Source: a virus. Taken from it: a stretch of 41,407 bases of DNA. Location: the IMG/VR virus record IMGVR_UViG_3300010285_000002. One strand, written 5' to 3'. Of this stretch, positions 2,900-37,836 are shown one piece after another. A model generated the notes under the pieces. The model saw only the letters and a program-made list of their open reading frames with translations. It searched no databases and was not told the DNA's origin. The number at the start of each line of letters is the position of its first letter. Positions within the stretch are counted from its first letter, which is position 1. The position numbers and the translations under genes are program-made.

Positions 2900-3098
2900 A
2901 GTTTGCTTAAATTATGCACCTTGACAATTGAATAAAAGGACAGCCCAGTTACGGGCTATCCTTAGATGCACGACCGACATACTGAATGTATTTATATACC
3001 ACAACTAAATCCACATGCAAAGTAATGAAAGGAGTGGTTAGATGAATGAAAAAACCACAGGTAAATCCACATACCCGAGAAAGTGAGGGGGAATTAAA

Positions 3099-3239
3099 TT
3101 GAATGATTATAAAAAAATATGTGAAACCTGTCTATTCTCACGTCCCTTTGCCGAATCTATTCAATATCTCAAATGTGAAAAATCCCGAAAATATGTTGAC
3201 AAGACACATACATGCAAATATTGGGCACCAAAACATTAG
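3099..3239 (+). CDS. small Cys4 protein (46 aa, TTG start; NDYKKICETCLF...CEKS...CKYW)
   Basis: TTG lies 7 nt after the GAGGGGG RBS. The alternative-frame translation looks like a zinc-ribbon module similar to the C-terminal half of ORF 3103..3384. Confidence 0.35.
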   Translation: MNDYKKICETCLFSRPFAESIQYLKCEKSRKYVDKTHTCKYWAPKH

Positions 3240-3384
3240 TAGTTGTTTTGATTGTATTTTCAAACAAGTAGATGAATATGACGGCACGATTTTTTGCACA
3301 GAAAATAGTTTTCGGGTGATAGACGATATTTGGGGTCACGGTAATAGTGACCCTTGTGAAAAATTTAGGAGGAGAGAAAAGTGA
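3103..3384 (+). CDS. hypothetical protein. The C-terminal half is a Cys4 module (CFDC..C..C); the true start may be ATG 3193
   Basis: ORF-track entry. The N-terminal 45 aa look non-protein-like and overlap the better-looking frame of 3099..3239. Confidence 0.4.
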   Translation: MIIKKYVKPVYSHVPLPNLFNISNVKNPENMLTRHIHANIGHQNISSCFDCIFKQVDEYDGTIFCTENSFRVIDDIWGHGNSDPCEKFRRREK

Positions 3385-4136
3385 ATTTACCAAAGGATTA
3401 CATAAGTGTATCTCAAATCAACATGTATCTCAGATGTCCAGCACAATATTACTTCCGATATGTTCAAGGCATGATTATACCGCCTAAATCGGCATTAACG
3501 AAAGGTAAGGCAGTACATAAAGGGCAGGAAGTCAACTACAAACAAAAGATAGATACGCACGAAGATATTAAACTTACTGATCTGCAAGAAGTTGTAGCAA
3601 CAGAATTTGAAACCTTAGCCCCAGAAACAGAATGGATGCCTGACGAGGATCCGGGCAAAGTCAAAGATGAAACAATTTCTCTTGCAAGTCTATACCACAC
3701 AGAAATTGCACCAACAGTACAACCTATGCTCGTTGAAGAAGAAATATTGATTGATATTCCCGGCGGTAAATTGAAAGGTTACATTGACCTTGTTGATATG
3801 CAAGAATACATCAGAGACACAAAAACAGCATCCAGAACACCATCGCAAGATGTTATATCAAAGTCACTTCAATTGTCAGCTTATGCTTTAGCTTATCGAA
3901 AAGAAATGGACAGAGAAGAAGCTGGAGTCAAATTAGATTATCTCGTCAACACTAAAACTCCAAAAGTAGTTACTCTTGAAGGGAAAAGAACTGAACAGGA
4001 TTTACAACGCTTCATTAACATAGCAACTCGTGTCATGGATGCAATTCAAAAAGATGTGTTCTATCCAAACCAGGACAACTTCATGTGCGACAAAAAAAAC
4101 TGCGGATACTATAAGATTTGTCATCAGACATTTTAG
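3381..4136 (+). CDS. PD-(D/E)XK (Cas4/RecB-like) exonuclease
   Basis: Motifs CPAQYYFRY, GYIDLVD...DTKT, QLSAYA and the C-terminal cysteines CDKKNCGYYKIC. GTG start lies 8 nt after AGGAGG. Confidence 0.75.
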   Translation: MNLPKDYISVSQINMYLRCPAQYYFRYVQGMIIPPKSALTKGKAVHKGQEVNYKQKIDTHEDIKLTDLQEVVATEFETLAPETEWMPDEDPGKVKDETISLASLYHTEIAPTVQPMLVEEEILIDIPGGKLKGYIDLVDMQEYIRDTKTASRTPSQDVISKSLQLSAYALAYRKEMDREEAGVKLDYLVNTKTPKVVTLEGKRTEQDLQRFINIATRVMDAIQKDVFYPNQDNFMCDKKNCGYYKICHQTF

Positions 4137-4148
4137 GAGGGATATTTG

Positions 4149-4898
4149 ATGGAATTACAAACAACTAGCTTGTCAATTATAGAAAATGTAAATTTGCAAC
4201 AGGTACAAGGAACACTAACAAAAATCGCACAATTCCAACAATTAGTACAAAATCAACTAAGACAAAACCATGATTATGGGATTATACCTGGAACACCAAA
4301 GCCAACTTTATTGAAACCAGGCGCAGAAAAAATACTCATGCTCATGGGATTACGTTCTGAATTTGAAATTGTAGATAGCACAAGAGATTTTGAAAAAGGA
4401 TTCTTTCAATATCAGGTACGATGCAAGTTATATCGTGGGGATGTACTCATTACTGAAGGTTTGGGCGCAGCAAACACTAAAGAACGCAAGTATCTCAAAC
4501 AAGATCCATTTACCATGGATAACACTGTATTGAAAATAGCCAAAAAACGTGCCTTAATAGATGCAACACTTCTCGTAGCTTCTTTATCAGAAGTTTTTAC
4601 CCAAGACATCGAGGATATGGACCTTGAAGGAAATCATTTGCCACAGACTGAGCAGCAGAGACAACAGCAGAATTTAACACCTGACAGTGATGCTGTAATT
4701 AGCAAGGCACAAGCAAAGCGTATGTATGCGTTGTCAAATGGCGATGCGGATCTTTGTAAGCGGATTATGCAAAAGTATGGTTATGAAAAGTCGGAGCAGG
4801 TCAAGAAGATTGACTACAACAAGATATGCGAAGAAATTGAAGCAGAAGTTGCAGCAAGTAAAGAAAATAATACAAAAGGAGGGGACAACAATGAATAA
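4149..4898 (+). CDS. putative single-strand annealing protein (recombinase), family not assigned
   Basis: Sits between the exonuclease and SSB. Has an acidic or Q-rich tail. ATG 4149 follows an AGGAGGG RBS. Confidence 0.5.
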   Translation: MELQTTSLSIIENVNLQQVQGTLTKIAQFQQLVQNQLRQNHDYGIIPGTPKPTLLKPGAEKILMLMGLRSEFEIVDSTRDFEKGFFQYQVRCKLYRGDVLITEGLGAANTKERKYLKQDPFTMDNTVLKIAKKRALIDATLLVASLSEVFTQDIEDMDLEGNHLPQTEQQRQQQNLTPDSDAVISKAQAKRMYALSNGDADLCKRIMQKYGYEKSEQVKKIDYNKICEEIEAEVAASKENNTKGGDNNE

Positions 4899-5283
4899 AG
4901 CATTTCTAGTTGGACGACTAACCAAAGATCCGGAACTAAATTACACAAATAACAACACAGCAGTTTGTAACTTCACTCTTGCAATAAATAGACGTTTCTC
5001 AGAAGAAACTGACTTTATCCCTATTGTCGCCTGGAGCAATACAGCCGAATTTTGCTCAAAATATTTCACTAAAGGTCGTAAGGTTATTGTCATTGGAAGA
5101 ATACAAGTCAGGTCGTGGGAGGATAACACCGGAAACAAAAGATATACAACTGAGGTTGTGGCAGAAGAAGTGGATTTTGCGGATTCGAAGAGAAACGACA
5201 TCGGAGATACATATGAGATGAATGCAAATGGTATCGATGGATTCTATCTGAATCCAGATGAGGAGGATGAAATTCCTTTTTGA
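4891..5283 (+). CDS. ssb: single-stranded DNA-binding protein
   Basis: MNKAFLVGRLTKDPEL OB-fold start and acidic C-terminal tip DEEDEIPF. RBS is AAAGGAGGGG. The upstream part of track ORF 4726.. is rejected. Confidence 0.9.
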   Translation: MNKAFLVGRLTKDPELNYTNNNTAVCNFTLAINRRFSEETDFIPIVAWSNTAEFCSKYFTKGRKVIVIGRIQVRSWEDNTGNKRYTTEVVAEEVDFADSKRNDIGDTYEMNANGIDGFYLNPDEEDEIPF

Positions 5284-5346
5284 GAAAAAACTTCCCCGGC
5301 AGTTAATCTGCTGGGGGGTACATTAAATAATAGGAGATGATATTTA

Positions 5347-5532
5347 ATGACATATAACGTGAAGTTATCACACAGCGACAAGAGCCGTGCAAAAATGTTG
5401 TACGCACCAATACGACAAGGCAAAGTTGTATATGAGCATCCAGAAGGAAGGTTTATTACTCTTGAGTTTGAAGGCAGGAGCGGGAAGTTTAGGGAATCGT
5501 TCCGGCCGGATGAATTAATAAGTGTGGTATAG
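5347..5532 (+). CDS. hypothetical protein (61 aa)
   Basis: ORF with AGGAG RBS. No recognisable motif. Confidence 0.45.
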   Translation: MTYNVKLSHSDKSRAKMLYAPIRQGKVVYEHPEGRFITLEFEGRSGKFRESFRPDELISVV

Positions 5533-7515: not shown

Positions 7516-7523
7516 GGGTAAAG

Positions 7524-7808
7524 ATGGCAAAGAAAAAAGAAGATAAAAAAGAGTTCGTTGTATATAAGGTAACAGATTGGAGGCTGTATCATGACGAAGA
7601 TCCATTCGCTAAATTAATCGAGGATGGATTGTATTATTGGGAAGCGCATCAATTGTGCAATAAGCTTAATATAAAGTCTGGATTGGAACCTACAGGAGGA
7701 TATAAGGTCTGTCATATATCAGATTGGGAAAAGCATCTTGAAAAATTCCGAGAATATCTCGAAATGAAACCTTTATCGGAATATAAGCAATTAAGCTTAT
7801 TTGAATAG
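7524..7808 (+). CDS. hypothetical protein (94 aa)
   Basis: ORF with RBS GGGGTAAAG. Confidence 0.55.
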   Translation: MAKKKEDKKEFVVYKVTDWRLYHDEDPFAKLIEDGLYYWEAHQLCNKLNIKSGLEPTGGYKVCHISDWEKHLEKFREYLEMKPLSEYKQLSLFE

Positions 7809-8027: not shown

Positions 8028-8444
8028 ATGACACAAGAAGAACTTAGTAGGTTGCAGCACATCCAGAAGGAAATTCAAATCATTCAGCAGCAAATCAGCA
8101 ATACAAGTCACTTATCATATCAATATGACAAAGTCAGGGGTTCAGATTCTAATTTCCCTTATACATTACGTTCGTTCACAGTTGAAGGCTATGACTATGA
8201 CGCTTATTATGCAAAGTTAGACAGATTGAACAAAAAGCTTGAACAGAAACTATGTGAATTGATGGACGAAAAAGATAGGTTGAATGATTATATTGAAAGC
8301 GTAGAAGACCCAATCATGAGGATGATTTTGCGATTGAAGCATATGGATGGACTTACATGGAGCCAGATCGGAGACAGAATTGGGTATACTGAGAGACAAT
8401 GCAGACGAAAATATAAGAAATTTTTTGAGAGTAAGAATGTGTAA
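8028..8444 (+). CDS. putative late-gene transcriptional activator (sigma-70 region-4-like; ArpU/RinA/DUF1492-type)
   Basis: C-terminal LTWSQIGDRIGYTERQCRRKYKKF helix-turn-helix. It is the last early gene before the packaging module. ATG 8028 follows GGAGGG. Confidence 0.6.
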   Translation: MTQEELSRLQHIQKEIQIIQQQISNTSHLSYQYDKVRGSDSNFPYTLRSFTVEGYDYDAYYAKLDRLNKKLEQKLCELMDEKDRLNDYIESVEDPIMRMILRLKHMDGLTWSQIGDRIGYTERQCRRKYKKFFESKNV

Positions 8445-8531
8445 AAATGTCCGTCAATGTCCGTTTCTAATGTGTTATATTGGTATTGTGAAAAGTGTAT
8501 TTTACGATACTCCCCTAAATAATATTAGACT

Positions 8532-26851: not shown

Positions 26852-27190
26852 ATGATGGAAATTATTAAAGATTTTTTAATTGAATACAGGTTTGTTATTG
26901 CAGTTATAGTATGCTTTATTCTTTATTTTTTGTTTGAAAGAGAAAAAGGATATAGCATATTGTATAATCTGATGTTGCAAGCAAAACGATTAGCAAAAGA
27001 CGCAATTTTGAAGTCAGGTCAACAGCAAGAGGATTGGGTTGTAGAAAAGGCGATGTATTTATTGCCAGTTTCTTGGAAAGTGTTCATAACAGAAACTAAA
27101 GTACGGAAAATAATTAAATGGTTATTTCACAAAGGGAAAGATCTAATTGACGATGGGAAATTGAATGATTCCTGGGGGAATGACCTATGA
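26852..27190 (+). CDS. putative holin / membrane protein
   Basis: N-terminal TM segment FVIAVIVCFILYFLF. Directly precedes the endolysin with an ATGA overlap. Confidence 0.5.
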   Translation: MMEIIKDFLIEYRFVIAVIVCFILYFLFEREKGYSILYNLMLQAKRLAKDAILKSGQQQEDWVVEKAMYLLPVSWKVFITETKVRKIIKWLFHKGKDLIDDGKLNDSWGNDL

Positions 27191-28602
27191 TTAGTAAACC
27201 TAAACCTTATGTTACTGTAGTAACGATACCCAAAAGTCAAATCAAAAATTTAGACATAGCAATGGCTACCGAACCTCTCGAACAAATGCAAAAGGCTTAC
27301 TCAAGATTGGGTAAGCCTGATTTCATGCTCAACGGCGGATTTTTTGATATGAGCAATGGGAAAACTGCCTCTAACCTCATAGACGATGGCGTTGTCAAAG
27401 GGAAAGGATGTAGCGATTTTGGGCTAATAGCAAACGGCAATACCGTGAAGTTCGGTAATATATCAGAAGCCAATTTTGATTTCATCGGTGGAACTCCGGC
27501 ACTGGTCAAGAACGGCAAAGTCGATATAGACCAAAATTATGGAGACAGCTTCAACAATGCTAGGCACCCTAGAAGCGCAGTAGGTGAAAACAAAGACAGC
27601 ATATTCTTAGTTGCTGTGGACGGCCGGAGAACAAATGCACCGGGAATGACATTGAATGAACTAGCCGAATTCATGATATCGATAGGCTGCACCAATGCAA
27701 TCAATCTTGATGGCGGAGGTTCTACTCGATTACTGCATAATGGCCAGCCTATTAACAACCCGACAGAGAATAGGGCAGTAGATAACTTCATATGTGTCTA
27801 CCTGAAAGGACAGACTAGTGGCAAAAAGAAGATATTCATTGACCCTGGACACGGTGGAAGTGATCCGGGGGCGCAAGCAAATGGATTGGTTGAAAAACAG
27901 CTAAATTTAACAGTAGCATTGAAGGTTAAAGAGCTGTTACTCGCTAGAGGCTTCGATGTTAAATTAAGTCGTGAATCAGATGTTTACCTGTCGCTCACCG
28001 AGCGTTGTAATCTAGCGAATAATTGGGGTGCAGATTATTTCATCAGCATTCACCACAACGCCGGCGGAGGCGATGGGTGGGAAATTATACATACAATTCA
28101 TACACATCAGTCAGAAGGTGACGAACTGGCAGAGGCAATTGGGAAGGAATTTACTAAGACTGGACAAAATAAGCGTCGGATTTTCAGTCAAGAATCCCAA
28201 AATTATCCCGGGCAGGATTACTTTACAGTAATTCAAAAAACTAAGATGCCAGCAATTATAACAGAATATGCTTTTCTTGACTCAGATGATTACAAGGCGG
28301 TTGATAGTATTGAAAAACTGTATAGAGAAGCACAAGCAATTGCAGACGGACTATGTGATTATCTTGGAATTGCTGTTACTGATACTACTAATGTTGGTCA
28401 AGAAGTAAAGGAGGTAAATACTGTGAGTTGGGAAGAGAAAAATAAAGAGTTTATAAAAATCGTGCAAAGAACAATAGGTGTTGATGTTGATGGACTTGCT
28501 GGTCCTAAAACAGTATCAGCTTTTGAAACTTACACTAAAAGTAAAGGAAACGAAAATGAGATTAAGCAAGCATGGAAAAAGTTAATGGAATTATTGAATT
28601 AA
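27187..28602 (+). CDS. three-domain endolysin: phosphodiester glycosidase (NAGPA/DUF2233)-like domain, N-acetylmuramoyl-L-alanine amidase (Amidase_3) and PG_binding_1
   Basis: N-terminal domain: NGGFFDM and RSAVGENKDSIFLVAVDGR...AINLDGGGST. Amidase: IFIDPGHGGSDPGA. C-terminus: IGVDVDGLAGPKT. Confidence 0.9.
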   Translation: MISKPKPYVTVVTIPKSQIKNLDIAMATEPLEQMQKAYSRLGKPDFMLNGGFFDMSNGKTASNLIDDGVVKGKGCSDFGLIANGNTVKFGNISEANFDFIGGTPALVKNGKVDIDQNYGDSFNNARHPRSAVGENKDSIFLVAVDGRRTNAPGMTLNELAEFMISIGCTNAINLDGGGSTRLLHNGQPINNPTENRAVDNFICVYLKGQTSGKKKIFIDPGHGGSDPGAQANGLVEKQLNLTVALKVKELLLARGFDVKLSRESDVYLSLTERCNLANNWGADYFISIHHNAGGGDGWEIIHTIHTHQSEGDELAEAIGKEFTKTGQNKRRIFSQESQNYPGQDYFTVIQKTKMPAIITEYAFLDSDDYKAVDSIEKLYREAQAIADGLCDYLGIAVTDTTNVGQEVKEVNTVSWEEKNKEFIKIVQRTIGVDVDGLAGPKTVSAFETYTKSKGNENEIKQAWKKLMELLN

Positions 28603-28606
28603 GCAA

Positions 28607-28636
28607 AGCCCCGGGTTAGTCTCGGGGCTATTTATT
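28607..28636 (+). terminator. intrinsic terminator after the endolysin gene
   Basis: Stem AGCCCCG/CGGGGCT with a 9-nt loop, followed by ATTTATT. Confidence 0.65.
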
Positions 28637-28663
28637 GACAATTGTTTCAACTCTTGTTATAAT
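28635..28663 (+). promoter_or_regulatory. perfect consensus sigma-A promoter (TTGACA-17-TATAAT)
   Basis: ttgaca lies at 28635-40 and tataat at 28658-63. No CDS lies downstream. Confidence 0.7.
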
Positions 28664-28666
28664 ATA

Positions 28667-28747
28667 ATCATCCACGGAAACAAGGATTGAAACGTTTTTA
28701 AATTTAAATTTTCTTGGAGAGCCCCTATCAAAGGGGCTTTTCTATTT
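28667..28747 (+). ncRNA. orphan small RNA with CRISPR-repeat-like segment ATCATCCACGGAAACAAGGATTGAAAC (candidate solitary repeat unit)
   Basis: The predicted transcript starts about 28670. The repeat-like 3' tag ATTGAAAC lies at 28686-28693. Terminator AGCCCCT/AGGGGCT plus TTTTCTATTT lies at 28720-28747. Confidence 0.45.
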
Positions 28748-28778: not shown

Positions 28779-29333
28779 TTAGTGTAAACCAGGACATTCA
28801 ATCAATGTGGGTTTGCAATCTTGCTGAATTTCGTTCCAGCTTGTTTGTACTTCTTGAAGTGTTGCACCATCTTTGATTGCAAGACCTATAATTTCCCAAT
28901 CTTCTGTTTTCCAGTTGCCAGTCATACATGATTGCCAACGTCTTGCATATACATGTATCTTCAATACACCAACTTCTAATGTAAAAGTTTCATCGTACAT
29001 AAATGATATAATATCTCTATATACTTCGTTTTTAAAATTTGGGTCTTCCCAGACCCAAATTTTTTTCTTTGTAATTCCTTGTTCCCATAAAAATTTTCTA
29101 ATTGAATCTTTGGGTGGTATCGGGGGATTCCAAATTGCAACTTTTGGAATTCCTCCCCACATATCTAGGAAGATTCTTTGACCTTTTTCCACATCAAAAA
29201 TCTGTGGCTCTCCACGTTTCCATTCAATTTTTGCAGTACCTTTGCCATTTTCGTTTAAGTTAATAGTAACTCTAGTACTCATTCCGGCCATGTAAGTTTC
29301 TGTTTTTTCAATCAAAAATACTTTTTTAGACAT
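28779..29333 (-). CDS. hypothetical protein (about 184 aa), last gene of the cargo island
   Basis: ORF on the island strand. ATG 29333 lies 8 nt after TAGGAGGAA; ATG 29339 is too close to the RBS. Confidence 0.6.
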   Translation of the reverse strand: MSKKVFLIEKTETYMAGMSTRVTINLNENGKGTAKIEWKRGEPQIFDVEKGQRIFLDMWGGIPKVAIWNPPIPPKDSIRKFLWEQGITKKKIWVWEDPNFKNEVYRDIISFMYDETFTLEVGVLKIHVYARRWQSCMTGNWKTEDWEIIGLAIKDGATLQEVQTSWNEIQQDCKPTLIECPGLH

Positions 29334-29416
29334 ATCCATTTCCTCCTATAAATTTATTCCGGACTTGTGACCGAACTGTAGCATTACCGGCCCGAAGGCC
29401 GTCACTCTGCTTTTGC

Positions 29417-29920
29417 TTAATGCCAAGTATGATAAACAGTGTTGAATTTTTTTCCGTCTGGTTTAATTATTTCTCGCACTATGTCTTTACCGCACTCTTC
29501 GCAGTCTATGAGATACCTTCTTATCTCTTGTGCATAACCTGTTCTTTTTGCTTCGGACAAGGCTTCTTCTTCTGTTTTCTGTTTTCTTTGAACTGGCTTA
29601 ACCATATCGCTTAAAGGCATTTCAAATTTTTCTATTTCGTTTACATGAGAAAGTCTCTTGTTTTCAAATGTATTAAAGAACCATCCAGAGAGATTACCTA
29701 TACTATCGACTAATACAAGTTCTATTGCTTTCCTGATAATTAATTCATCTATTGATGATGTCGTTACTCCAAGAGCTTTAAATTCTTCAGTTTCAATAGC
29801 AAGAGTTGGAGTATAATACGGCTTTGCCCATCCTTCAGCTACAAATTCCACATTTCTTTTCCCTTCAATCAGTTCCTGAACAATACCATTAATTTTTTCC
29901 TTAGCCTCTTTACTTAACAT
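29417..29920 (-). CDS. hypothetical protein (167 aa) with C-terminal CEEC..H.WH motif
   Basis: Strong RBS GAGGGAGGA. First gene behind the second island promoter. Confidence 0.65.
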   Translation of the reverse strand: MLSKEAKEKINGIVQELIEGKRNVEFVAEGWAKPYYTPTLAIETEEFKALGVTTSSIDELIIRKAIELVLVDSIGNLSGWFFNTFENKRLSHVNEIEKFEMPLSDMVKPVQRKQKTEEEALSEAKRTGYAQEIRRYLIDCEECGKDIVREIIKPDGKKFNTVYHTWH

Positions 29921-29956
29921 ATTAATTCCTCCCTCAAAATATTTATCTTACTTAAG

Positions 29957-29985
29957 ATTATACTATGACTGTCACTGACTGTCAA
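29957..29985 (-). promoter_or_regulatory. perfect consensus promoter (TTGACA-17-TATAAT) carrying two TGACAGTCA sites
   Basis: Minus-strand sequence is TTGACAgtcagtgacagtcatagTATAAT. The operator pair lies at 29966-29984. Confidence 0.7.
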
Positions 29986-30172
29986 TAATATTTTTCAATT
30001 TTTTTTCATTTCTTTTATATTTTTCAATAGTATCCAACATAAATTGGCGGATAAGTTTCCCTGGGTTCAAACAATTTTCCTCACAAACTTTTTTGTATTC
30101 ATCTTGTATTTCTTGTTCAACTCGATACCAAAGTTGTGGATTTTTTTTGATGCTTTTGTTTTTATCTGCCAT
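29972..30172 (-). CDS. small ribbon-helix-helix-like protein (66 aa)
   Basis: ATG 30172 lies 8 nt after AAGGAG. The pattern LNPGKLIRQFMLD is typical of RHH/CopG-like regulators. Assignment is tentative. Confidence 0.5.
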   Translation of the reverse strand: MADKNKSIKKNPQLWYRVEQEIQDEYKKVCEENCLNPGKLIRQFMLDTIEKYKRNEKKLKNIIDSQ

Positions 30173-30177
30173 AAAAA

Positions 30178-30699
30178 TCACTCCTTTACCTTATATATCG
30201 CATCAGCACGGTTGACTAAATCATCAGTGCTGTAATTTCCAAATATCATATTGATTTTTTTGTGATATGCATCTGCGTCCCAAGGAATGCTTTTTTGATT
30301 TTCAATAGCAATCCGGAGCTTTTGTGAAAATTCAGTAGACAGTCCAGAATATCTTATTGCTTTTAAGATACCAGTGTTGGCATCTACAAGCAGAGTAGTC
30401 AATCCGAATCCTTTTCCTTCTGTAATTTCTTGAAATTCAAAAGGCTGTGACAAATGAATACTATATGGTGCATCCATCCATGGTATACCTTGAAATTTGG
30501 TCAGTATAAAAATAACTTCATCTTTTTGATAAAATCTAATTTCAAATTTTCCTTTTTTGACAGACTCTATTTCTGCGTCTGTAGGACTATTGAAAAAGAG
30601 GTAGAGTAGAGGACCAGCTTGCTGAAAGTCAAAAATCACTCCTTCTTGATATTTTGTTTTTCCTTCTTGTAGTAATTGTCCTACTTCAAGTTTCTGCAT
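30178..30699 (-). CDS. hypothetical protein (173 aa)
   Basis: ATG 30699 follows an AAAGGAGG RBS and overlaps the end of the ParB-like gene. Confidence 0.6.
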   Translation of the reverse strand: MQKLEVGQLLQEGKTKYQEGVIFDFQQAGPLLYLFFNSPTDAEIESVKKGKFEIRFYQKDEVIFILTKFQGIPWMDAPYSIHLSQPFEFQEITEGKGFGLTTLLVDANTGILKAIRYSGLSTEFSQKLRIAIENQKSIPWDADAYHKKINMIFGNYSTDDLVNRADAIYKVKE

Positions 30700-31345
30700 A
30701 AAATTCTTTCCTCCTTTGTTCGTATTCTTCCCAGCTCTTGCTAAATTCGTGATTTGCAAAAGCTTCTTTCAAACCTGTAATCTGTTTGAGCCTGATAACT
30801 TCATCAAGTTCCATTCCAAGTTTTTTGCAAATTTCTTGGTCACTCCATCCATATTTCGTAAGTTCCAAAACAATGTCGCTCATGTTTCGTATCTGATGTG
30901 TTCCTCTTGCTCTGTTGTGCCGGATAGTACTTCCCATACGCTCGTCAAGAGGCTTATTAATTGTTGATACTGGAAGCCTGCCAAAAGTTCTTTCGGCAAT
31001 ATCATTATGTTCTTTTACAATTCTGTTCCTGTGGAAGCCATCTACAACTTCCCGGGCTTCATTTTCTAACTTGTATGTAACTATTGGCATTGTATATCCA
31101 TCAAGCTTGATTGATTGATATAAGAGCTTCATTTCTGGATTTGCTACTTTATTTGGGTTGTATTCATTGGCCTGGACTTTATTAGCCGGCACCCAAATTA
31201 CGCAGTCAACTGGGTCCGAAATAGGGGAAACTTCATGCAAATTAATCTTTATTTCATTAATTGTGTCGATTTTTTCGTCGACATCCTCAATTTTCTCAAT
31301 TTCTTCTTTAAGCTTCATCAGTAATTTTGTTATTTCAGTTCTCAT
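30686..31345 (-). CDS. ParB/Srx N-terminal-domain protein (IbrB-like)
   Basis: Motifs YNPNKV...L..SI..DGYTMPIV and VVDGFHR. RBS is TAAGGAGGG. Confidence 0.85.
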   Translation of the reverse strand: MRTEITKLLMKLKEEIEKIEDVDEKIDTINEIKINLHEVSPISDPVDCVIWVPANKVQANEYNPNKVANPEMKLLYQSIKLDGYTMPIVTYKLENEAREVVDGFHRNRIVKEHNDIAERTFGRLPVSTINKPLDERMGSTIRHNRARGTHQIRNMSDIVLELTKYGWSDQEICKKLGMELDEVIRLKQITGLKEAFANHEFSKSWEEYEQRRKEFYAET

Positions 31346-31748
31346 TATTATCCCTCCTTAAATAATAATATCTACCGTTCTGGCGATAAACTTCAAATCC
31401 ACTATTAATCCAATACTTTTTTAGGTGTTCTTCTTTTGTAATAACTTCAATGGGTTTATTTTTATCTGAAGCATACTTAAACCTGAATTCATTAAGCTTC
31501 TTCCAAATACCTTTCTTTCGGTATGCTTCTTCTACATATGAATGTTCGAACATGATTTTATTTTTTAGTTCATGCAGCGAGGCAAAAGCGATTAAAGTAT
31601 CTTTTTCAAAAGCTAGGAACCAAACACTGCCTTCTTTGTTTGCAAGATAAGGCATTTCTTTTTGATATTTTGGTTCTGCAAAGTATTTCCCCATGTGAGA
31701 GTAGAATTTAGATTTGTCATAATTCCCTTCAAAAATTTCAATCTGCAA
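31335..31748 (-). CDS. GNAT-family acetyltransferase-like protein
   Basis: VEEAYRKKGIWKKL resembles an acetyl-CoA-binding motif. TTG 31748 follows a GAGGTGAG RBS, immediately after the upstream stop. The start is uncertain. Confidence 0.55.
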   Translation of the reverse strand: MQIEIFEGNYDKSKFYSHMGKYFAEPKYQKEMPYLANKEGSVWFLAFEKDTLIAFASLHELKNKIMFEHSYVEEAYRKKGIWKKLNEFRFKYASDKNKPIEVITKEEHLKKYWINSGFEVYRQNGRYYYLRRDNNEN

Positions 31749-33096
31749 ACAACTCACCTCTTTCCCAGCGTTCCATGTCCTTGTCGACTTTGCCATCGCC
31801 GACAATATGACTGTATTTTTCTTTGAGTTTATTAAGTTTCTCGACATCCTTTTTTGTAGCCGAGAAACTTAATCGCTTCATCCAAAAATCATTTTTTTCA
31901 AGTGCTCTTGCAATTCTTCGCCATGATGGGATATGTGTTTCTGCCTCAAGTTTTCTGTCTCCTTCGTCCGGTATCTGATGTACATCAATACCTCTATTGT
32001 CGTACCACCATTTCATGAAGGTTTTAATTTTCCCGTAATAATGCTGCTCCAATTCCGGAGCATATATCCGGATGCTCTCAAGTAGAAATATTGTGTATTG
32101 CTCCCAGGTCATATGTTCTGGTTTTTCTGTTTTTAGGTTGCCAAGCAGTGAAGTCCGGGCATATATATTACCAAAGTTTACGCCGTTGACCCGGTTTAAA
32201 ACTTTTTCCCATGTTTCGGGCTCCAAAGCTTTAAACTGGTCAAGGCCGTTTCGCTGGTCATCTCCATACGGCTGGCATAACCTCTGCTCGTGAATTGATA
32301 GCCCATTTTTGTACATCAACTCATATATTTCATTGAATTTCAAGTCCAATTTTGCGACGGCTCCCCATATATCCTCTGTACACCAATCGTAAAGAGGGAA
32401 GAAGTTGTAACAGTCAATTAATTTTTCCCTGATTTTAATTTGAGTGGTCCATCCATAATCTCGGTATCTTATTTTTGATTCGCTGACAATAGTCCTAAAC
32501 CTGTTCAAACTTTCGTTGCTTCTGATACCAATTCCAGCGGCAGACAGTCCTTTTTGTTCGCTGTACCATTTCGCGAACAATATGATAAATTCCTCGAACT
32601 CCATACTATGTCTAAACCAGTCCCAAGGGCAGTTTTTTTCGTTGATGACCCATTTATTTTTTGGCATATCCCGTACCCATTTATCTTTATCCTTCTTATC
32701 CCAGCAGGTCCATTTGGGTTGTAAAATGGACACCGCGTTTCTTAGGGAAAGGGGGAGACATACCCAATAAACCCGTTCTATAACATCTTGGCAATCTTCC
32801 AACAATTCTTCGACATGCTTAATTGTTGCCTTGTACTGTGCTTCAAGATCTATGTATAGCATGTCAATTTTCTTTTTGTATTCCCTGGCTTTTTGCGCAG
32901 CTAATTGGAGCATAACGCTGCTATCCTTACCTCCAGAAATAGAAAAGTATATATTGTCAAAATCCCTAAATATAATGTCATACCTTTCCATAGCAGCTTC
33001 AAACACATTTTTGTTGCTGTATATCTTCGACACCGTCAATCCACCTCCCAATATCTTTTTTGTTTTGAGTTTTTGTAATGTAATATTTGAAAGCAT
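31738..33096 (-). CDS. PAPS-reductase-family ATP pyrophosphatase with long C-terminal extension (IbrA/DUF3440-like)
   Basis: YFSISGGKDSSVML PP-loop motif. About 450 aa. Adjacent to the ParB-like gene, as in IbrAB pairs. ATG 33096 follows GAAAAGAAGG. Confidence 0.85.
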   Translation of the reverse strand: MLSNITLQKLKTKKILGGGLTVSKIYSNKNVFEAAMERYDIIFRDFDNIYFSISGGKDSSVMLQLAAQKAREYKKKIDMLYIDLEAQYKATIKHVEELLEDCQDVIERVYWVCLPLSLRNAVSILQPKWTCWDKKDKDKWVRDMPKNKWVINEKNCPWDWFRHSMEFEEFIILFAKWYSEQKGLSAAGIGIRSNESLNRFRTIVSESKIRYRDYGWTTQIKIREKLIDCYNFFPLYDWCTEDIWGAVAKLDLKFNEIYELMYKNGLSIHEQRLCQPYGDDQRNGLDQFKALEPETWEKVLNRVNGVNFGNIYARTSLLGNLKTEKPEHMTWEQYTIFLLESIRIYAPELEQHYYGKIKTFMKWWYDNRGIDVHQIPDEGDRKLEAETHIPSWRRIARALEKNDFWMKRLSFSATKKDVEKLNKLKEKYSHIVGDGKVDKDMERWERGELFAD

Positions 33097-34384
33097 CAGA
33101 AAGACCTTCTTTTCTTTCAAGACACTTCAAAATTCTTTCGTCTAAAGTACCGTCTGCAACAATATCAATTATATGTACATTATTATTTTGTCCTATACGA
33201 TGCAGCCGATCCTCACTTTGTGAACGTGTTGCCCAATCCCAATCATTATTATAATAAATTGCATAATTGCAAAATTGGAGGTTGAGGCCATAACTAGCAC
33301 ATGATTTATTTGCTATAAGATATTTTTTGTTATTAGCAAATAAATCTGTATTTATATCCCTTTGTTTCTTTGTAATTTCGCCGTAGAAGCATATGGCATC
33401 ATTACCTAGTATATTAGATATGTTTTCTATTTCATGTGTGTATTTGCACCAAATAACCACTTTGTCGTCGATTCTTTCTAATAAGCTTAATAGTATTTGG
33501 ATTCTTGGATTATCTTTTGGTTTCTCGAAAAATGGTACAGTACGAATAGGTTCATCATACTTTGACACAATCCTATTTCCTGTAAGTACATGTTGCAAAG
33601 CTGTAAATAATCTGTATATCGTATGAGGTTCAAACTCATCAAGCTGTAGCAAAAATTCTTCTTTGACTTTTTTATAATGCCAATATTGTTCATCTGTTAA
33701 GTCGAAATATTTCTTGCTATAAGTTTTTTCAGGAAGTTGCAGACATTCTGACTTTTTTATTTGATAGGTATATGGCGAGATTTTTCTCACCAAGTAGTCA
33801 GTATTCAAGCAACGATTAATTTTACCTGGAACACGTTCATCGTATTCCAGGTGATTTGCAGCAAAACTCCAAAAAGACTTATAACCAAGTATACGCCAAT
33901 CAAGTATATACCATTGTGAGAATAGGTCTTTTTCGCATCTGGACACTGGTGTACCATTCAGTATAAGTTTATATTGGCAATGTTCAGCAAGTCTTTCAAT
34001 GTTTATTGTACGTTTCGCCCTGTGGTTTTTCACAAGGTTAGATTCATCCACAATAAGAAAGACCTTATTATTTTTCACATATTCAAGTAACTCACAATTA
34101 AGTCTTATACTGCTTGACAGGCTTTCGATGCCTTCTATACGAAAGTATGAAAAATCTCCATCTATGTGTTTCTGCAATTCCTTGCGAATAGTTGTTTTTA
34201 CACTGCAAGGACATAGCCATAACACTTTATTTACTTTTCCGACGACAAGACGGCGGTAAATAAGTTCCAGTGCCGTCCTTGTCTTGCCTGTGCCCATTTC
34301 CATGTAAAGTGCTCCAACTTTGATTTGTTGGAGCTTTTCTACCGCTGGAATTTGATGGGGGAGGAGATTAGTCTTTAAGATCAT
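32999..34384 (-). CDS. SNF2-family helicase/translocase
   Basis: Motifs LLPHQ, MEMGTGKTRT (motif I), VDESNLVKN (motif II) and SQSEDRLHRIGQ (motif VI). Confidence 0.9.
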   Translation of the reverse strand: MILKTNLLPHQIPAVEKLQQIKVGALYMEMGTGKTRTALELIYRRLVVGKVNKVLWLCPCSVKTTIRKELQKHIDGDFSYFRIEGIESLSSSIRLNCELLEYVKNNKVFLIVDESNLVKNHRAKRTINIERLAEHCQYKLILNGTPVSRCEKDLFSQWYILDWRILGYKSFWSFAANHLEYDERVPGKINRCLNTDYLVRKISPYTYQIKKSECLQLPEKTYSKKYFDLTDEQYWHYKKVKEEFLLQLDEFEPHTIYRLFTALQHVLTGNRIVSKYDEPIRTVPFFEKPKDNPRIQILLSLLERIDDKVVIWCKYTHEIENISNILGNDAICFYGEITKKQRDINTDLFANNKKYLIANKSCASYGLNLQFCNYAIYYNNDWDWATRSQSEDRLHRIGQNNNVHIIDIVADGTLDERILKCLERKEGLSDAFKYYITKTQNKKDIGRWIDGVEDIQQQKCV

Positions 34385-35495
34385 CAAGTATCTCCTCCGA
34401 TGATTCTAATATTTTTTTCAAGCCATCGACTGGCTTTTCTTCTTTTTTTGAAGCAGGTGTAACAACAGTTACATCCTGCAAGCTTGCTTTGTACTGTTCA
34501 ATAAGCTCTTTTGCGGAATCTGAAAATGCAAAGCCGTATAGATTAGCAAAATCTTCTACCTCCTGCCAATAGTTGACCTTTACAACCATACTGCCATCGT
34601 GCCATTTGGCAGAAGGTAACTTTTTGGCAACTTTATATAAATCATCGTTATAACCTTCCCATGATATAGCCAATTTCTCTTTGTGTTCTTCTTTTGTACA
34701 TGCCTTTATCCAACGTTTTTGTTCCGGATTGTAGTTGCCGGAAATAGCATTTTGAAGTATACTATTATCGGTAATCATTATAGGGAATCCTGCATTAAGC
34801 AGCTTGTTTCCCAACTCAGCGGCTCTGTCCTCAGCAGGGCCGTTAAACTTATTAATTTCTCTGTACCAATAACCATCTCCCCAAGTATAGCCAAGGGATT
34901 TGACTATTTTGCGAAAGTTTTCGTTTTTTGAGAAAGTAACAGTGATTTTTGTATCACTGACTTTTATTTCAGCTGGTTCTTTATATCCACAGTTTTCAGG
35001 GTAAACTGTGGAATCTTTTTTGATATCTTCTAAAATTGGAGCAATCTCCTGATCTTTTTTCCACATTCTAATCTCTTTCAACTTCTCCTCCAGCCAAAAT
35101 AGTATTCCATATGATCTATTATCTATGAACCAGCTTGCTTTTTTTTGGCTCATGACATAGTCAAGAATATCTTGTTTTTCTTTTTTATTGGATCCAATTC
35201 GAAATAAATCTTCAGATTCTAATCTATCAATCTTATCTATCATTTCTTGCCTGAGCGTAACAGCCCAAGCAATTTGTTTTTCACTCCCTTCGAGTTCTGG
35301 GAGTTCCATCTTCTTAGCTTTTTCTAAAGCTTCTATTCTGGCTTTTTCTCTTTCTTCAGTTCTTTTCTTTTCAAAACATTCCGGGCACAATCCTCGAAAG
35401 TGTGCATCAGCTTTCCATTGTCTATGTTTCATAGGTCCTATTATATTTGTACGGCCTTCATGACCACAACTATATGTACCGTAATACCATGCCAT
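34368..35495 (-). CDS. hypothetical 375-aa protein with N-terminal zinc ribbon (CGH...CPEC), coupled to the SNF2 helicase
   Basis: Motifs YGTYSCGHEG...GLCPECFEKK and LEGSEKQIAWA. It overlaps the SNF2 start by about 17 nt. Confidence 0.7.
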   Translation of the reverse strand: MAWYYGTYSCGHEGRTNIIGPMKHRQWKADAHFRGLCPECFEKKRTEEREKARIEALEKAKKMELPELEGSEKQIAWAVTLRQEMIDKIDRLESEDLFRIGSNKKEKQDILDYVMSQKKASWFIDNRSYGILFWLEEKLKEIRMWKKDQEIAPILEDIKKDSTVYPENCGYKEPAEIKVSDTKITVTFSKNENFRKIVKSLGYTWGDGYWYREINKFNGPAEDRAAELGNKLLNAGFPIMITDNSILQNAISGNYNPEQKRWIKACTKEEHKEKLAISWEGYNDDLYKVAKKLPSAKWHDGSMVVKVNYWQEVEDFANLYGFAFSDSAKELIEQYKASLQDVTVVTPASKKEEKPVDGLKKILESSEEILDDLKD

Positions 35496-35507
35496 AATAA
35501 TCCCTCC

Positions 35508-35684
35508 TTAAATTTTATTAACACGTTCTGCAATATCTGGATTAAGAACATCAAATATTTTTATTGCTCTTTCTAAGCTACAACCAAGATAACTTTTTAT
35601 ATGAGATACTCTTGGCTTGATTTCTCCTTTTTCTACAGCCTTCTTTACTTTTTCTATATCTTCTAATAAATCTATATTTGTCAT
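35508..35684 (-). CDS. small HTH-like protein (58 aa), first gene of the island operon
   Basis: ATG 35684 follows a GAGGGAGGA RBS. The segment VSHIKSYLGCSLERAIKIF is compatible with a helix-turn-helix. Confidence 0.5.
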   Translation of the reverse strand: MTNIDLLEDIEKVKKAVEKGEIKPRVSHIKSYLGCSLERAIKIFDVLNPDIAERVNKI

Positions 35685-35720
35685 CTGTAATTCCTCCCTC
35701 AAAATTTATTGACATATATA

Positions 35721-35749
35721 ATTATAACATGACAGTCATTGACTGTCAA
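35721..35749 (-). promoter_or_regulatory. perfect consensus promoter (TTGACA-17-TATAAT) with palindromic operator TGACAGTCA-n-TGACTGTCA
   Basis: Minus-strand sequence is TTGACAgtcaatgactgtcatgtTATAAT. The operator lies at 35730-35748. Confidence 0.7.
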
Positions 35750-35882
35750 TATTTTTTATATTAATTAATTACAATATTTAATAAAAAACAAGAAACTTGT
35801 TTGCTTTTCTTATTGTATATTATTATTGTTGAATATTGACAAAGCTTGAATTAAAACAGAATTATTTAAATTAATTTTTTTC

Positions 35883-35911
35883 TTGAAAATCGAACACATG
35901 TTCAGTATAAT
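35883..35911 (+). promoter_or_regulatory. near-consensus promoter (TTGAAA-17-TATAAT)
   Basis: ttgaaa lies at 35883-88 and tataat at 35906-11. Confidence 0.5.
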
Positions 35912-35948: not shown

Positions 35949-36152
35949 ATGGTTAGTTTGTCGAATATGCAAAGAGAAATCACTATACTTAGTGAAGGCA
36001 TTTTTGAAATTGCTAGCATCCTGAAGCGCAACTATGGTTGTAATGATCCTAATTTCAGAAAAACTTTTTCTGACATATTAATACAATCCGGAAATGAAAA
36101 TTTAAATATAATCATAAATTCTATAGTAGATTCTATTGTGACAGAATTGTGA
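35949..36152 (+). CDS. hypothetical protein (67 aa), a moron next to attP
   Basis: ATG 35949 follows an AAGGGGAGG RBS. It has its own promoter and terminator. Confidence 0.5.
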   Translation: MVSLSNMQREITILSEGIFEIASILKRNYGCNDPNFRKTFSDILIQSGNENLNIIINSIVDSIVTEL

Positions 36153-36156
36153 CATT
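36135..36156 (+). repeat. two direct ATTGTGACA(tt) repeats, candidate integrase arm-type sites (left arm)
   Basis: attgtgaca lies at 36135-43 and attgtgacatt at 36146-56. Confidence 0.5.
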
Positions 36157-36165
36157 TTTATAAAA

Positions 36166-36189
36166 AAGCCACTGCAAAAACAGTGGCTT
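36166..36189. terminator. bidirectional hairpin terminator
   Basis: Stem AAGCCACTG/CAGTGGCTT. An A6 run upstream gives T6 on the minus strand. TTTAAAAATTTT lies downstream. Confidence 0.6.
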
Positions 36190-36267
36190 TAAAAATTTTA
36201 TAAATCGTCAAAGTATTGGCATTACTATATTTTAGGATAATATAGAAAAAAGCAGAACATTTATTTA

Positions 36268-36331
36268 TACGACTGGAAATCGTGTGTACGTTAATAGCGT
36301 ACCGAGGGTTCGAATCCCTCTCTCTCCGCCA
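36268..36331 (+). tRNA. partial tRNA-Ser(GGA), 3' portion only (anticodon arm, long variable arm, T-arm, acceptor 3' strand, CCA), interpreted as the attP core
   Basis: Anticodon loop CTGGAAA. Variable stem GTACG/CGTAC. T-arm GAGGG-TTCGAAT-CCCTC. 3' end TCTCTCC-G-CCA. No matching 5' acceptor (GGAGAGA) or D-arm lies upstream. Confidence 0.75.
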
Positions 36332-36338
36332 CTTAAAA

Positions 36339-36368
36339 GGATTTAGATGTAAGTCTAAATTCTTTTTT
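36339..36368 (+). terminator. hairpin plus T6 directly after the tRNA fragment
   Basis: Stem GGATTTAGA/TCTAAATTC followed by TTTTTT. Confidence 0.55.
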
Positions 36369-36416
36369 ATTGTGACATTATTGTGACATTTCTGTTTTCT
36401 CCGATTTTTGTGACAT
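36369..36416 (+). repeat. three direct (A)TTGTGACAT(T) repeats, candidate integrase arm-type sites (right arm)
   Basis: Copies at 36369-79, 36380-90 and 36408-16. They overlap the 3' end of int. Confidence 0.5.
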
Positions 36417-37487
36417 GAATACTAAATTATCAATATTGGTACTTGCTTTCTTAATTAATGTTTTATTGTTATGGAGATAAGTATCTGAAGTAATACCTAT
36501 TTTGCTATGACCAAGCAACCTTTTTAATGTATCCAGGTCGGTACCGCATTCAAGTTGAAGTACCGCAAATGTATGTCGGAGGTCATGAAATCTACAAGTT
36601 GGAAGATTGTTAGCTTTTTGAAAGTTTTTTAATGCTCTAGATAAATGAGAAGGGTCCGGAAGTTTTCCATCTATTTCACTTACATAGATAGAATTAGCTC
36701 TTTTTTTATGCTCTTTTAATTCTTCAGCCAAAAAACCTTCTATAGAAAATATTCTTTCAGATTCTTTAGTTTTTACTTTCTTATGAATTTCTTTGCCTTC
36801 AACAACAACATAATTATTTCTTACATAAGCAATGTTATTGTTGAAGTCTATATCAGACCAACGTAGCCCCAAGCATTCCCCTCGTCGCAAACCTCGCATA
36901 GCTGCAAGTAATACAGGGATATATAAGTAATGTTTTTGCTCGCGTAAAAGAGAAATAAGTTTTCCTAAGTCTTCAGCAGTATAAACAGATATTTCAAACT
37001 TTTCATTATCTTCTGCTATTTCTACACCTTTACAAACATTTTTCTCTACAAGGTCATTTTTTAAAGCATATTCAAGTGCAGCATGAAGAACTCTACAAAC
37101 GTATTTTACAGTACGATATTTTAATCCAGATTTAGTTAATGTATCTGCCATATTTTGAACATCTATTAATTTTAGTTTCATTAAAGGGATATTACCAATG
37201 TGATTATTTATATGTTGAATATTCGTTTTATACCCACTCAATGTAGTTGGGGAAAGTTTCTTTTCTTTAGTAACAATCCATTTTTCTAAAAATTCTTTAA
37301 CAGTAATGCCGTCAGCACCTTCAGCAAGACCTTCCAGTTTTCTTTTAGTATCAATTCCCCAATCTTCTGCTTCTTTTTTCTTTTCAAAACCCGACTTATA
37401 TTTACTTTTCTTTTTACCATTCTTATAATACCAAAAACGGCACGAATAATATGTTTTCGAGCCGACTTTGTAACTTTTAACTTCCAT
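36378..37487 (-). CDS. int: tyrosine integrase
   Basis: Catalytic motifs RGLRRGE, HDLRHTFA and LGHS...TSDTYLH. Adjacent to the tRNA fragment. Confidence 0.95.
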   Translation of the reverse strand: MEVKSYKVGSKTYYSCRFWYYKNGKKKSKYKSGFEKKKEAEDWGIDTKRKLEGLAEGADGITVKEFLEKWIVTKEKKLSPTTLSGYKTNIQHINNHIGNIPLMKLKLIDVQNMADTLTKSGLKYRTVKYVCRVLHAALEYALKNDLVEKNVCKGVEIAEDNEKFEISVYTAEDLGKLISLLREQKHYLYIPVLLAAMRGLRRGECLGLRWSDIDFNNNIAYVRNNYVVVEGKEIHKKVKTKESERIFSIEGFLAEELKEHKKRANSIYVSEIDGKLPDPSHLSRALKNFQKANNLPTCRFHDLRHTFAVLQLECGTDLDTLKRLLGHSKIGITSDTYLHNNKTLIKKASTNIDNLVFMSQKSEKTEMSQ

Positions 37488-37836
37488 TATCATTACCTCC
37501 TAATCTTTTTATGAAATTTAATACTAAATCAAGATCCGAATCATTTAAATTAGCTATTAATGGCAAAGCTTTTTGAACTTTATAATTGTTAAGTATTTTA
37601 TTAACCAATTCTTGGGCATCACTTTCCATTTGTTTAGGGTTGTCCCAACCTAATAGCCAGTTTGCATCTACTTCAAGTGCCCCTAGTAACAATTCAATTG
37701 TATCAGCATAAGGCATATTTTTATCATTTTCCCAATCACTTATAGAATTATGTTTTACACCTATTAAATCAGCTAATTGTCTTTGTGTTAATCCTTTTTT
37801 TAGTCTAGCTTCTTTGATTCTTTTACCTAAGCTCAT
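37477..37836 (-). CDS. CI-like repressor (XRE-family HTH, no peptidase domain)
   Basis: LTQRQLADLIGVKHNSISDWEN motif. Divergent from the cro-like gene. Confidence 0.85.
   Translation of the reverse strand: MSLGKRIKEARLKKGLTQRQLADLIGVKHNSISDWENDKNMPYADTIELLLGALEVDANWLLGWDNPKQMESDAQELVNKILNNYKVQKALPLIANLNDSDLDLVLNFIKRLGGNDNGS

Follow-up and report, generated by a model that had tools for sequence, protein, structure and literature searches.

A minus-strand island between the endolysin gene and attP

The IMG/VR virus record IMGVR_UViG_3300010285_000002, analyzed here as one stretch of 41,407 nucleotides (nt; the window), carries an island of ten minus-strand open reading frames (ORFs) at positions 28779–35760, flanked by the endolysin gene and attP/int. 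Operon 1 (g1–g8) encodes a zinc-ribbon protein (g2), a SNF2-family ATPase (g3), the PP-loop protein IbrA (g4), a GNAT-fold protein (g5) and the ParB/Srx-fold protein IbrB (g6), together with three smaller proteins, and operon 2 encodes two further proteins (g9 and g10). Comparison of gene neighborhoods shows that operon 1 belongs, with a full set of features, to a very widespread phage module whose core is an obligate IbrA-IbrB pair, usually joined by an SNF2 translocase.

Independent gene calls agreed with the ORFs: on two metagenome contigs with the identical phage, they gave products of 58, 375, 461, 431, 153 or 137, 219, 173, 66, 167 and 184 amino acids (aa). Successive genes of operon 1 are separated by +12, –20, –35, –11 to –62, –11, –17 and +5 nt, where negative values denote overlaps. 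The tight packing described in a first-pass annotation of this DNA is therefore confirmed, as is its statement that the island shares the strand of the integrase and HTH_3 repressor genes and opposes the lytic genes, because the endolysin and all structural genes lie on the plus strand. GC content is 35.5% in the island, 39.8% in the plus-strand block, 44.5% in the structural core and 32.4% in the int/early region. The island is thus AT-richer than the structural genes, as had been noted, yet it is no composition outlier within this phage. Megablast found no near-identical DNA among cultured phages.

Table 1. Positions of the island's genes and signals and of its flanking features in the window.
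Feature	Position	Strand	Description
Promoter P1	35721–35749	–	Perfect TTGACA-17-TATAAT, extended –10 TG
g1	35508–35684	–	58 aa, first gene of operon 1; ORF extends to TTG 35702 (64 aa)
g2	34368–35495	–	375-aa Zn-ribbon protein; C10/H12/C37/C40; acidic tail; two C-terminal alpha/beta domains
g3	32999–34387	–	Minimal SNF2-family ATPase, 461–462 aa, without accessory domains
g4	31738–33033	–	IbrA; PP-loop SGGKDS, PAPS_reduct and DUF3440; ORF extends to 33120
g5	31335–31748	–	GNAT acetyltransferase-fold protein; ORF extends to 31847
g6	30686–31345	–	IbrB, ParB/Srx fold, 219 aa; NxYNPN, VDGxHR and HNRARGxH invariant
g7	30178–30702	–	173 aa, accessory after IbrB; phrog_12389
g8	29972–30172	–	66 aa, last gene of operon 1; no family match
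Promoter P2	29957–29985	–	Twin of P1; perfect TTGACA-17-TATAAT
g9	29417–29920	–	167 aa, operon 2; no family match
Twister ribozyme (predicted)	29359–29411	–	Type-P5, self-cleaving, RF02684; in the 77-nt g9–g10 gap
g10	28779–29339	–	184/186 aa, operon 2; no family match
Endolysin	27187–28602	+	
Promoter past endolysin	28635–28663	+	Perfect sigma-70 site (TTGACA-17-TATAAT, TG)
Hairpin with T-run	28716–28742	+	About 55 nt beyond the preceding promoter
Promoter-like site	35883–35911	+	
67-aa gene	35949–36152	+	Divergent from P1, between island and attP
attP region	36140–36400		Between island and int
Integrase	36378–37493	–	
HTH_3 repressor	37477–37836	–	

The IbrA-IbrB module and its partners

The identification of the IbrA and IbrB proteins held up in profile searches. 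IbrA contains PF11922 (DUF3440; 1e-29) and PF01507 (PAPS_reduct; 3.2e-12), both above cut-offs, matches phrog_2302 at 2.7e-78 and can be aligned end to end with annotated IbrA proteins. The protein most likely starts at GTG 33033 and has 431 aa, which corrects the 452 aa first given. IbrB was identified through phrog_2159 (1.8e-74); its ParB_N score of 21.6 bits lies under the Pfam cut-off of 26.3. Across phages as diverse as those of Firmicutes, mycobacteriophage Gaia and an E. coli phage, IbrB proteins are 45–70% identical and share a conserved C-terminal helical region. The ParB domain of IbrB additionally hits ParB-methyltransferase families of phages, phrog_498 among them. Neither IbrA nor IbrB has a sequence relative among solved structures.

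The SGGKDS PP-loop is invariant in the IbrA family, and an alignment of 12 diverse IbrA proteins contained no conserved cysteine. The Cys of the LCQPYGDDQ motif is replaced by Asp or Ala in the dairy phages, in Gaia and in a further relative (L011). Because the family lacks a common cysteine, IbrA is judged not to be a 3'-phosphoadenosine-5'-phosphosulfate (PAPS) reductase, and either DndC-type iron-sulfur (Fe-S) or persulfide chemistry or CysH-type sulfur chemistry is unlikely. The sulfur-based analogy with Dnd and BrxP drawn in the first-pass annotation is thus not supported, and the label "PAPS reductase" or "auxiliary metabolic gene" on phage IbrA genes is probably misleading. In the structure model, the N-terminal domain of IbrA most resembles PAPS/APS reductases, CysD and FMN adenylyltransferase, a grouping in keeping with a DNA-modification theme.

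To define the conserved unit, we examined 80 IMG/VR viral loci that contain IbrA. IbrB was adjacent and co-directional in all 80, and SNF2 was adjacent to IbrA in 64, usually just upstream and sometimes just after IbrB. The 375-aa gene was present at 13 of the loci and the 173-aa gene at five. GNAT genes occurred at six, every time downstream of IbrA and upstream of IbrB. These counts suggest that the strict unit is IbrA plus IbrB, with SNF2 as the usual third member and the GNAT and 173-aa proteins as recurrent accessories. The view of the IbrAB-SNF2-Zn-ribbon-GNAT genes as a conserved unit is borne out by this census and by that of the 375-aa gene described below, and the set carries no name in PADLOC. 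The combination had been considered unusual. It is instead abundant and routinely annotated in phages as helicase, PAPS reductase and ParB-like protein. For genes of the IbrA/IbrB type, a single search scored more than 7000 clusters, tblastn with IbrA hit 151 cultured-phage records, and IbrA/IbrB-type genes were found in 151 to 226 such records.

The 375-aa protein g2 is a subunit dedicated to the SNF2 protein g3 in this lineage. The zinc-ribbon assignment of g2 was upheld, since C10, H12, C37 and C40 are invariant in 50 homologues, and the protein also carries the motif LPEL-G-[ST]-EKQ-x-x-WA-x-x-LR. In a census that started from g2 and took one genome per species, 35 of 38 loci with a full-length homologue had SNF2 and IbrA adjacent, in genomes spanning Bacillota, Desulfobulbus, Azoarcus, Methylobacterium and Xenorhabdus. 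Among the three exceptions, a contig end truncates two loci, and the remaining one stops about 3 kb downstream. The structure model of g2 (predicted local distance difference test score, pLDDT, 87.8) gave no significant fold match in the PDB, with weak matches to the XPB/Ssl2 helicase N-terminal region (XPB-type E 7e-3) and to phage "HepA-related" and helicase proteins. These weak matches, together with the 20-nt overlap between g2 and the SNF2 gene, support g2 as a helicase accessory, and the census points to a strict, lineage-specific partner or subunit of SNF2. The first 127 residues of the g2 family also stand alone in other contexts. Residues ~56–122, with the motif L-x-G-[ST]-x-KQ-x-x-WA-x-x-[IL]R, gave non-significant matches to AcrIF23 (54–128, E 0.027) and to the N-terminus of AcrIE7 (E ~0.5). 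This likeness (E 0.03–0.8) is a lead to a shared helicase- or nuclease-binding element in g2.

The SNF2 motor was recognized correctly from its motifs. PF00176 and PF00271 both scored above cut-offs (SNF2-rel_dom 2e-10 for the N-terminal domain, Helicase_C 2e-12), residues 4–429 matched the SsoRad54 core (1z63; 8.8e-27), and phrog_62 was matched at 7.5e-97 over positions 691–1132 of its 1881. Further matches of the protein were to RapA and to a "pilus expression-regulating Snf2 helicase". A second SNF2-family helicase, of 430 aa, is encoded in the early/replication region of the same phage (336–1628 of the 46-kb contig L007, outside the window) and is only 23% identical to the island protein.

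The GNAT protein most likely starts at TTG 31748 and has 137 aa. It scored 27.4 bits with Acetyltransf_1 against a cut-off of 20.7, and its motif A, read from the sequence as R-K-K-G-I-W, is only partly canonical. In two relatives, P0235 and P0260, the IbrA C-terminus carries a fused GNAT homologue (40% identity, E 4e-32). In the window, the probable TTG start and the IbrA stop share an 11-nt overlap, which resembles the outcome of a gene fission that left the two parts translationally coupled.

The module occupies different places in different phages. In Clostridium phage phiCs5676-1, the closest cultured relative (IbrA 63% identical), the 375-aa, SNF2, IbrA and IbrB genes come after the endolysin gene and share its strand, with int on the other one. 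A Hathewaya prophage likewise has the module after and co-directional with the lysin, an Anoxybacillus prophage has it between the early genes and terminase, and on a Faecalibacterium contig module and lysin converge, which is also the arrangement of the window. Streptococcus thermophilus phages CHPC1148 and D4276, S. equinus phage Pika and Lactobacillus helveticus phage CR28 carry the SNF2-IbrA-IbrB trio in the interval from lysin to cro, a stretch that holds no integrase. The module was co-directional with both flanks at 13 of 40 loci and the arrangement seen in the window was rare, although this strand census used stop-to-stop ORFs, which are noisy, and gives weak support only. Given this variety, the attP-side, int-strand orientation belongs to this phage and not to the module, and strand and position are not the fixed features for which they had been taken. 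In D4276, AcrIIA5, a hypothetical gene, SNF2, IbrA and IbrB form one co-directional string between lysin and cro (1714–5495 of locus L167). AcrIIA5 was reportedly isolated from D4276, which is a virulent phage.

Two loci, L095 (5203–5850) and L005 (6496–7146), encode a protein of 215 or 216 aa with a DPPW motif directly after IbrB. It matches N6_N4_Mtase weakly (E 5.6e-4) and is a putative DNA methylase. IbrA is shorter in this sub-lineage (385 aa), and an additional gene of 293 aa separates its SNF2 and IbrA genes.

IbrB-like ParB proteins of 36–46% identity are also encoded at the left end of many actinophage genomes, including gene 5 of Mycobacterium phages Athena and Akoma, gene 7 of Arthrobacter phage Salgado and gene 1 of Microbacterium phage Hendrix; in Mycobacterium phage records the gene directly adjoins terminase. 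By tblastn, IbrA accompanied these genes in 4 of 60 Mycobacterium and 0 of 12 Arthrobacter records, which suggests that the IbrB family also works alone.

Of the "six unknown partners" assigned to the SNF2, IbrA, GNAT and IbrB genes, only the 375-aa protein is a strict partner. The 173-aa protein g7 is recurrent like the GNAT, and the 167- and 186-aa proteins belong to a separate cargo operon of the closest lineage. The 58-, 173-, 66-, 167- and 186-aa proteins (g1, g7, g8, g9 and g10) matched no Pfam, NCBIfam or PADLOC family, and Pfam searches at E up to 10 gave nothing usable. The labels "HTH-like" for g1 and "RHH-like" for g8 were accordingly not confirmed. Among these five, g7 alone has a PHROGs family, with more than 1600 cluster representatives; fusions within this family contained no informative domain except HTH_59, and the fused N-termini were not IbrB. 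Related loci have small HTH_17- or HTH_59-like genes downstream of the module, with weak matches in L010 and L012 and a clear one in L095, and the small proteins that the module carries in the window are putative regulators.

Promoters, operon 2 and a twister ribozyme

The twin promoters proposed for the two operons, P1 and P2, are both perfect sigma-70 sites. Their –35 to –10 spacers share the pattern TGACAGTCA-N-TGAC(T/A)GTCA. The P1 spacer reads TGACAGTCA-A-TGACTGTCA, an operator-like 8-bp perfect inverted repeat, and the P2 spacer reads TGACAGTCA-G-TGACAGTCA. The 21-mer repeat has only these two sites in the window, against none expected by chance, and a similar TTTTGAGGGAGGAATTA ribosome-binding region lies downstream of each promoter. 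Because of the common 21-mer and the alike ribosome-binding regions, operons 1 and 2 look co-regulated by one DNA-binding protein, and the operator-like repeats suggest repression. With the flanking T bases dropped, the 19-bp operator core was found among relatives only in the identical contigs L007–L009, so that comparative support for a regulator site is absent. The 67-aa gene divergent from P1 was called on the identical contigs too. Its product had nothing usable in Pfam at E up to 10 and could be a regulator that binds the shared operator.

The gap between g9 and g10 holds a predicted twister ribozyme that the first reading of the sequence overlooked. It scored 56.3 bits with Rfam against a gathering score of 37.6, over the full-length model and with the conserved core nucleotides, and the operon 2 mRNA would be cut there. 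Further copies lie beyond the window in three loci. In L005 (7953–8007) the ribozyme follows a g9 homologue (69% identical) downstream of the module, and in L006 (7708–7762) it follows a truncated copy of g9. In L095 three ribozymes (7519–7584, 8180–8233 and 8456–8509) bracket the sole g10 homologue found (43% identity) in a gene-ribozyme-gene-ribozyme array, located downstream of the Ibr module and convergent on the lysis genes. Covariance analysis of five copies gave 95% of cells paired and five pairs with compensatory change.

We considered the twister as a general companion of the Ibr module and rejected this idea, as a scan of 164 related loci, made with a covariance model from these copies and excluding L007–L009, found it only in L005, L006 and L095. 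Since the ribozymes occur only with g9/g10 homologues in the closest loci, operon 2 is best viewed as a sub-lineage cargo array outside the conserved Ibr machinery; it looks like a separate cargo unit, co-regulated with operon 1 through the shared operator-like sequence. In bacteria and prophages, twister and hammerhead ribozymes occur near phage genes with shared but unexplained gene neighbors and may act in the processing of polycistronic mRNAs (PMC6765202), and RF02684 twisters lie between cistrons near phage genes as they do here. No paper in the literature searched linked twisters to cassettes that lie downstream of an IbrAB module.

Two further features flank the island. The attP region holds the 3' part of a type-II tRNA up to its CCA end (~36272–36333; anticodon-loop CUGGAAA), which, read by eye, is probably tRNA-Ser with anticodon GGA; ARAGORN called no complete tRNA in the window. 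Four TGTCACAAT copies form two flanking pairs at ~36141–36165 and ~36361–36387 (ATTGTGACA on the plus strand). At the other end, the plus-strand promoter just past the endolysin terminator and the hairpin beyond it could yield a short RNA of ~75 nt without an ORF (28635–28745); such an RNA would converge on the 3' end of operon 2 and be antisense to it.

Likeness to known systems and possible functions

No named defense system matched the island, as the first-pass annotation had supposed. With PADLOC, only SNF2 gave matches, all to helicase cores (ZorD, DpdE, DrmD and BrxH), and the other nine proteins gave none. The DrmD, ZorD and DpdE matches are restricted to the C-terminal helicase core of profiles of ~750–1290 positions, and the NCBIfam scores were far under their cut-offs (for DrmD, 46.8 against 950). 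The DISARM, Zorya and Dpd partner genes (DrmA–C, ZorA–C and DpdA) are absent from the island. IbrA had no PADLOC match to BREX type 4, and the sole BREX match was that of the helicase core to BrxHI/HII. Searches of the ten proteins with PADLOC, Pfam and NCBIfam likewise found no cysteine desulfurase, DndD/DndE or SspB/SspC.

The nearest counterparts are other Ibr genes. E. coli IbrA and IbrB, which reportedly act as co-activators of the prophage eib genes, belong to the same two families and are adjacent and overlapping on one strand. The pair of E. coli phage PhiR5_2 is 39% (IbrA) and 46% (IbrB) identical to that of the window, with the same PAPS_reduct and DUF3440 architecture and the common motifs NPN, DGxHR and HNRARG. 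Genes for SNF2, a Zn-ribbon partner and GNAT, present in the window, are not found beside the E. coli pair. The virulent dairy phages D4276 and CHPC1148 (S. thermophilus), Pika (S. equinus), and CR28 and phiAQ113 (L. helveticus) keep the order helicase, IbrA, IbrB and small gene directly past the lysis genes, and their IbrB proteins are 55–59% identical to that of the window. Their trio lacks the 375-aa partner, the GNAT and the 173-aa gene and is co-directional with the rest of the genome, and the stretches examined have no annotated integrase.

Further parallels come from DNA-modifying systems. Dnd (DndBCDE)/Ssp and BREX type 4 BrxP also combine a ParB/Srx fold, a PP-loop enzyme of the PAPS-reductase fold and an ATPase partner, but the island lacks conserved IbrA cysteines, a desulfurase, DndD/E, PglZ and BrxC/L. 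SNF2-methylase pairs such as DarB (PMC5512222) and phage ParB-methylase fusions (PMC12704722) likewise couple a translocase, a ParB fold or both to a DNA-modifying enzyme. The enzyme in the window differs in that it is of the PP-loop ATP pyrophosphatase type and not an S-adenosylmethionine-dependent methyltransferase, and its partners are separate polypeptides. No sign of virion packaging was seen.

From this evidence, a DNA-tracking or DNA-modifying role appears to be the best reading of the module. The form that we favor, though we put it at slightly under an even chance, is a phage-side, translocase-coupled DNA-modification or counter-defense system. Five considerations lead us to it: a double-stranded DNA translocase, a nucleoside triphosphate (NTP)-binding ParB/Srx fold and an enzyme with an intact PP-loop are locked together; GNAT is fused to IbrA in some relatives; a putative DPPW methylase follows IbrB in the closest sub-lineage; the module is present in lytic phages; and in one phage it has a validated anti-CRISPR as a neighbor. 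In this scheme, the module would act for the phage on double-stranded DNA. The SNF2 motor and its Zn-ribbon partner would track along the DNA, and IbrB would use its NTP-binding fold to load or position the complex. The PP-loop of IbrA would then use ATP to adenylate the DNA substrate and install a covalent non-sulfur modification, which GNAT, where present, may elaborate. DNA so modified would be handled differently by host nucleases or immune sensors, amounting to counter-defense or epigenetic marking, and the modification might likewise account for the increase in prophage gene expression brought about by E. coli IbrAB. In this phage, the module's own operator-controlled sigma-70 promoters mean that it may also be expressed from the prophage, a property that is not conserved.

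Several points weigh against this scheme. The data show synteny, domains, motifs, distribution and promoters, and from these we infer that DNA is the substrate of IbrA, that it is adenylated and then substituted, and that host immunity is evaded as a result. To our knowledge no modified base has been described for any phage that carries the module. A literature search on IbrA, IbrB, DUF3440 and PAPS reductase with ParB or SNF2 found no mechanistic study, and the only known IbrAB genetics, those of Sandt et al. 2002 in E. coli, reportedly concern activation of gene expression and not DNA modification. The DUF3440 region and conserved loop of the IbrA model have pLDDT below 50. By tblastn, PhiR5_2 and 16 of the 80 viral loci lack an adjacent SNF2, and the IbrB-like genes that stand by terminase without IbrA hint at other roles. 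The AcrIIA5 neighborhood is one example only, and the strand, attP-side position and strong promoters of the island fit expression in lysogeny.

This last point is the starting point for the idea that the island serves the lysogen, with a prophage-expressed SNF2-IbrAB complex that marks or attacks incoming foreign DNA and so protects the host cell, as a defense or by superinfection exclusion. The idea gains from the likeness of the SNF2 core to the ZorD, DpdE, DrmD and BrxH helicases and from a 2026 preprint that lists clusters of a nucleoid protein and a PAPS reductase, with or without Arc/ParBc, as untested defense candidates. Against it stands the distribution of the core, since some phages that carry it lack a nearby integrase and other temperate phages have it on their lytic strand; lysogen-specific defense is thus poorly supported, and neither this function nor "prophage-expressed cargo" is supported as a description of the module in general. 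Domain searches revealed no nuclease or other effector domain, PADLOC matched nothing beyond SNF2, and the repeats in P1 and P2 suggest repressed promoters. We therefore regard lysogen defense as unlikely.

A second alternative takes the E. coli phenotype at face value. IbrB would be an NTP-gated clamp like ParB or KorB and SNF2 a RapA-like remodeler, which together activate or de-repress late or cargo genes, with IbrA as a nucleotide-handling cofactor. The co-activator role of IbrA and IbrB, whose text database annotations carry, speaks for such a regulator, as do the helical C-terminus of IbrB, of a kind that might bind DNA, the RapA and pilus-regulator matches of SNF2, and the proximity to terminase of the Anoxybacillus module and of many actinophage IbrB-like genes. 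However, the position of the module relative to late genes varies, and the invariant PP-loop, the strict IbrA-IbrB pairing, the GNAT fusions and the putative methylase would all go unexplained, which leaves a regulator improbable to much the same degree.

Least probable by far is a minimal phage version of Dnd/Ssp phosphorothioation, in which IbrA would be the analogue of DndC/SspD, IbrB would be DndB-like or nicking, SNF2 would stand in for DndD and the sulfur would come from host IscS: the PP-loop of IbrA is intact and its pairing with a ParB fold parallels DndB-DndC, but IbrA has no family-wide cysteine, neither Ibr protein matches a Dnd, Ssp, Pbe or BrxP model, and genes for a cysteine desulfurase, DndD and DndE are missing from the island. 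DndB itself is a ParB-like protein (PMC12704722, PMC12839542).

Taken furthest, the phage-side DNA-modification reading would make SNF2-IbrA-IbrB a new class of translocase-coupled DNA modification. In this doubtful but possible extension, a cysteine-free PP-loop enzyme would adenylate DNA at base or backbone to give a non-sulfur adduct, sometimes acylated by GNAT, as a counter-defense of thousands of lytic and temperate phages, and the co-activation by E. coli IbrAB would be a side effect.

Genes of the IbrA/IbrB type are very common yet have no assigned mechanism, and they are often labeled as sulfur "auxiliary metabolic genes". We argue that this metabolic reading is wrong, because IbrA lacks the reductase cysteine and is locked to a ParB fold and usually to SNF2. 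S. thermophilus phage D4276, with the module after AcrIIA5, and C. scindens phage phiCs5676-1 offer tractable models, and the twister-punctuated cargo operon provides a concrete setting for testing the role of bacterial self-cleaving ribozymes. If the module does modify DNA or counter immunity, it would represent new enzyme chemistry in phage-host conflict and would explain a 20-year-old genetic observation in E. coli.

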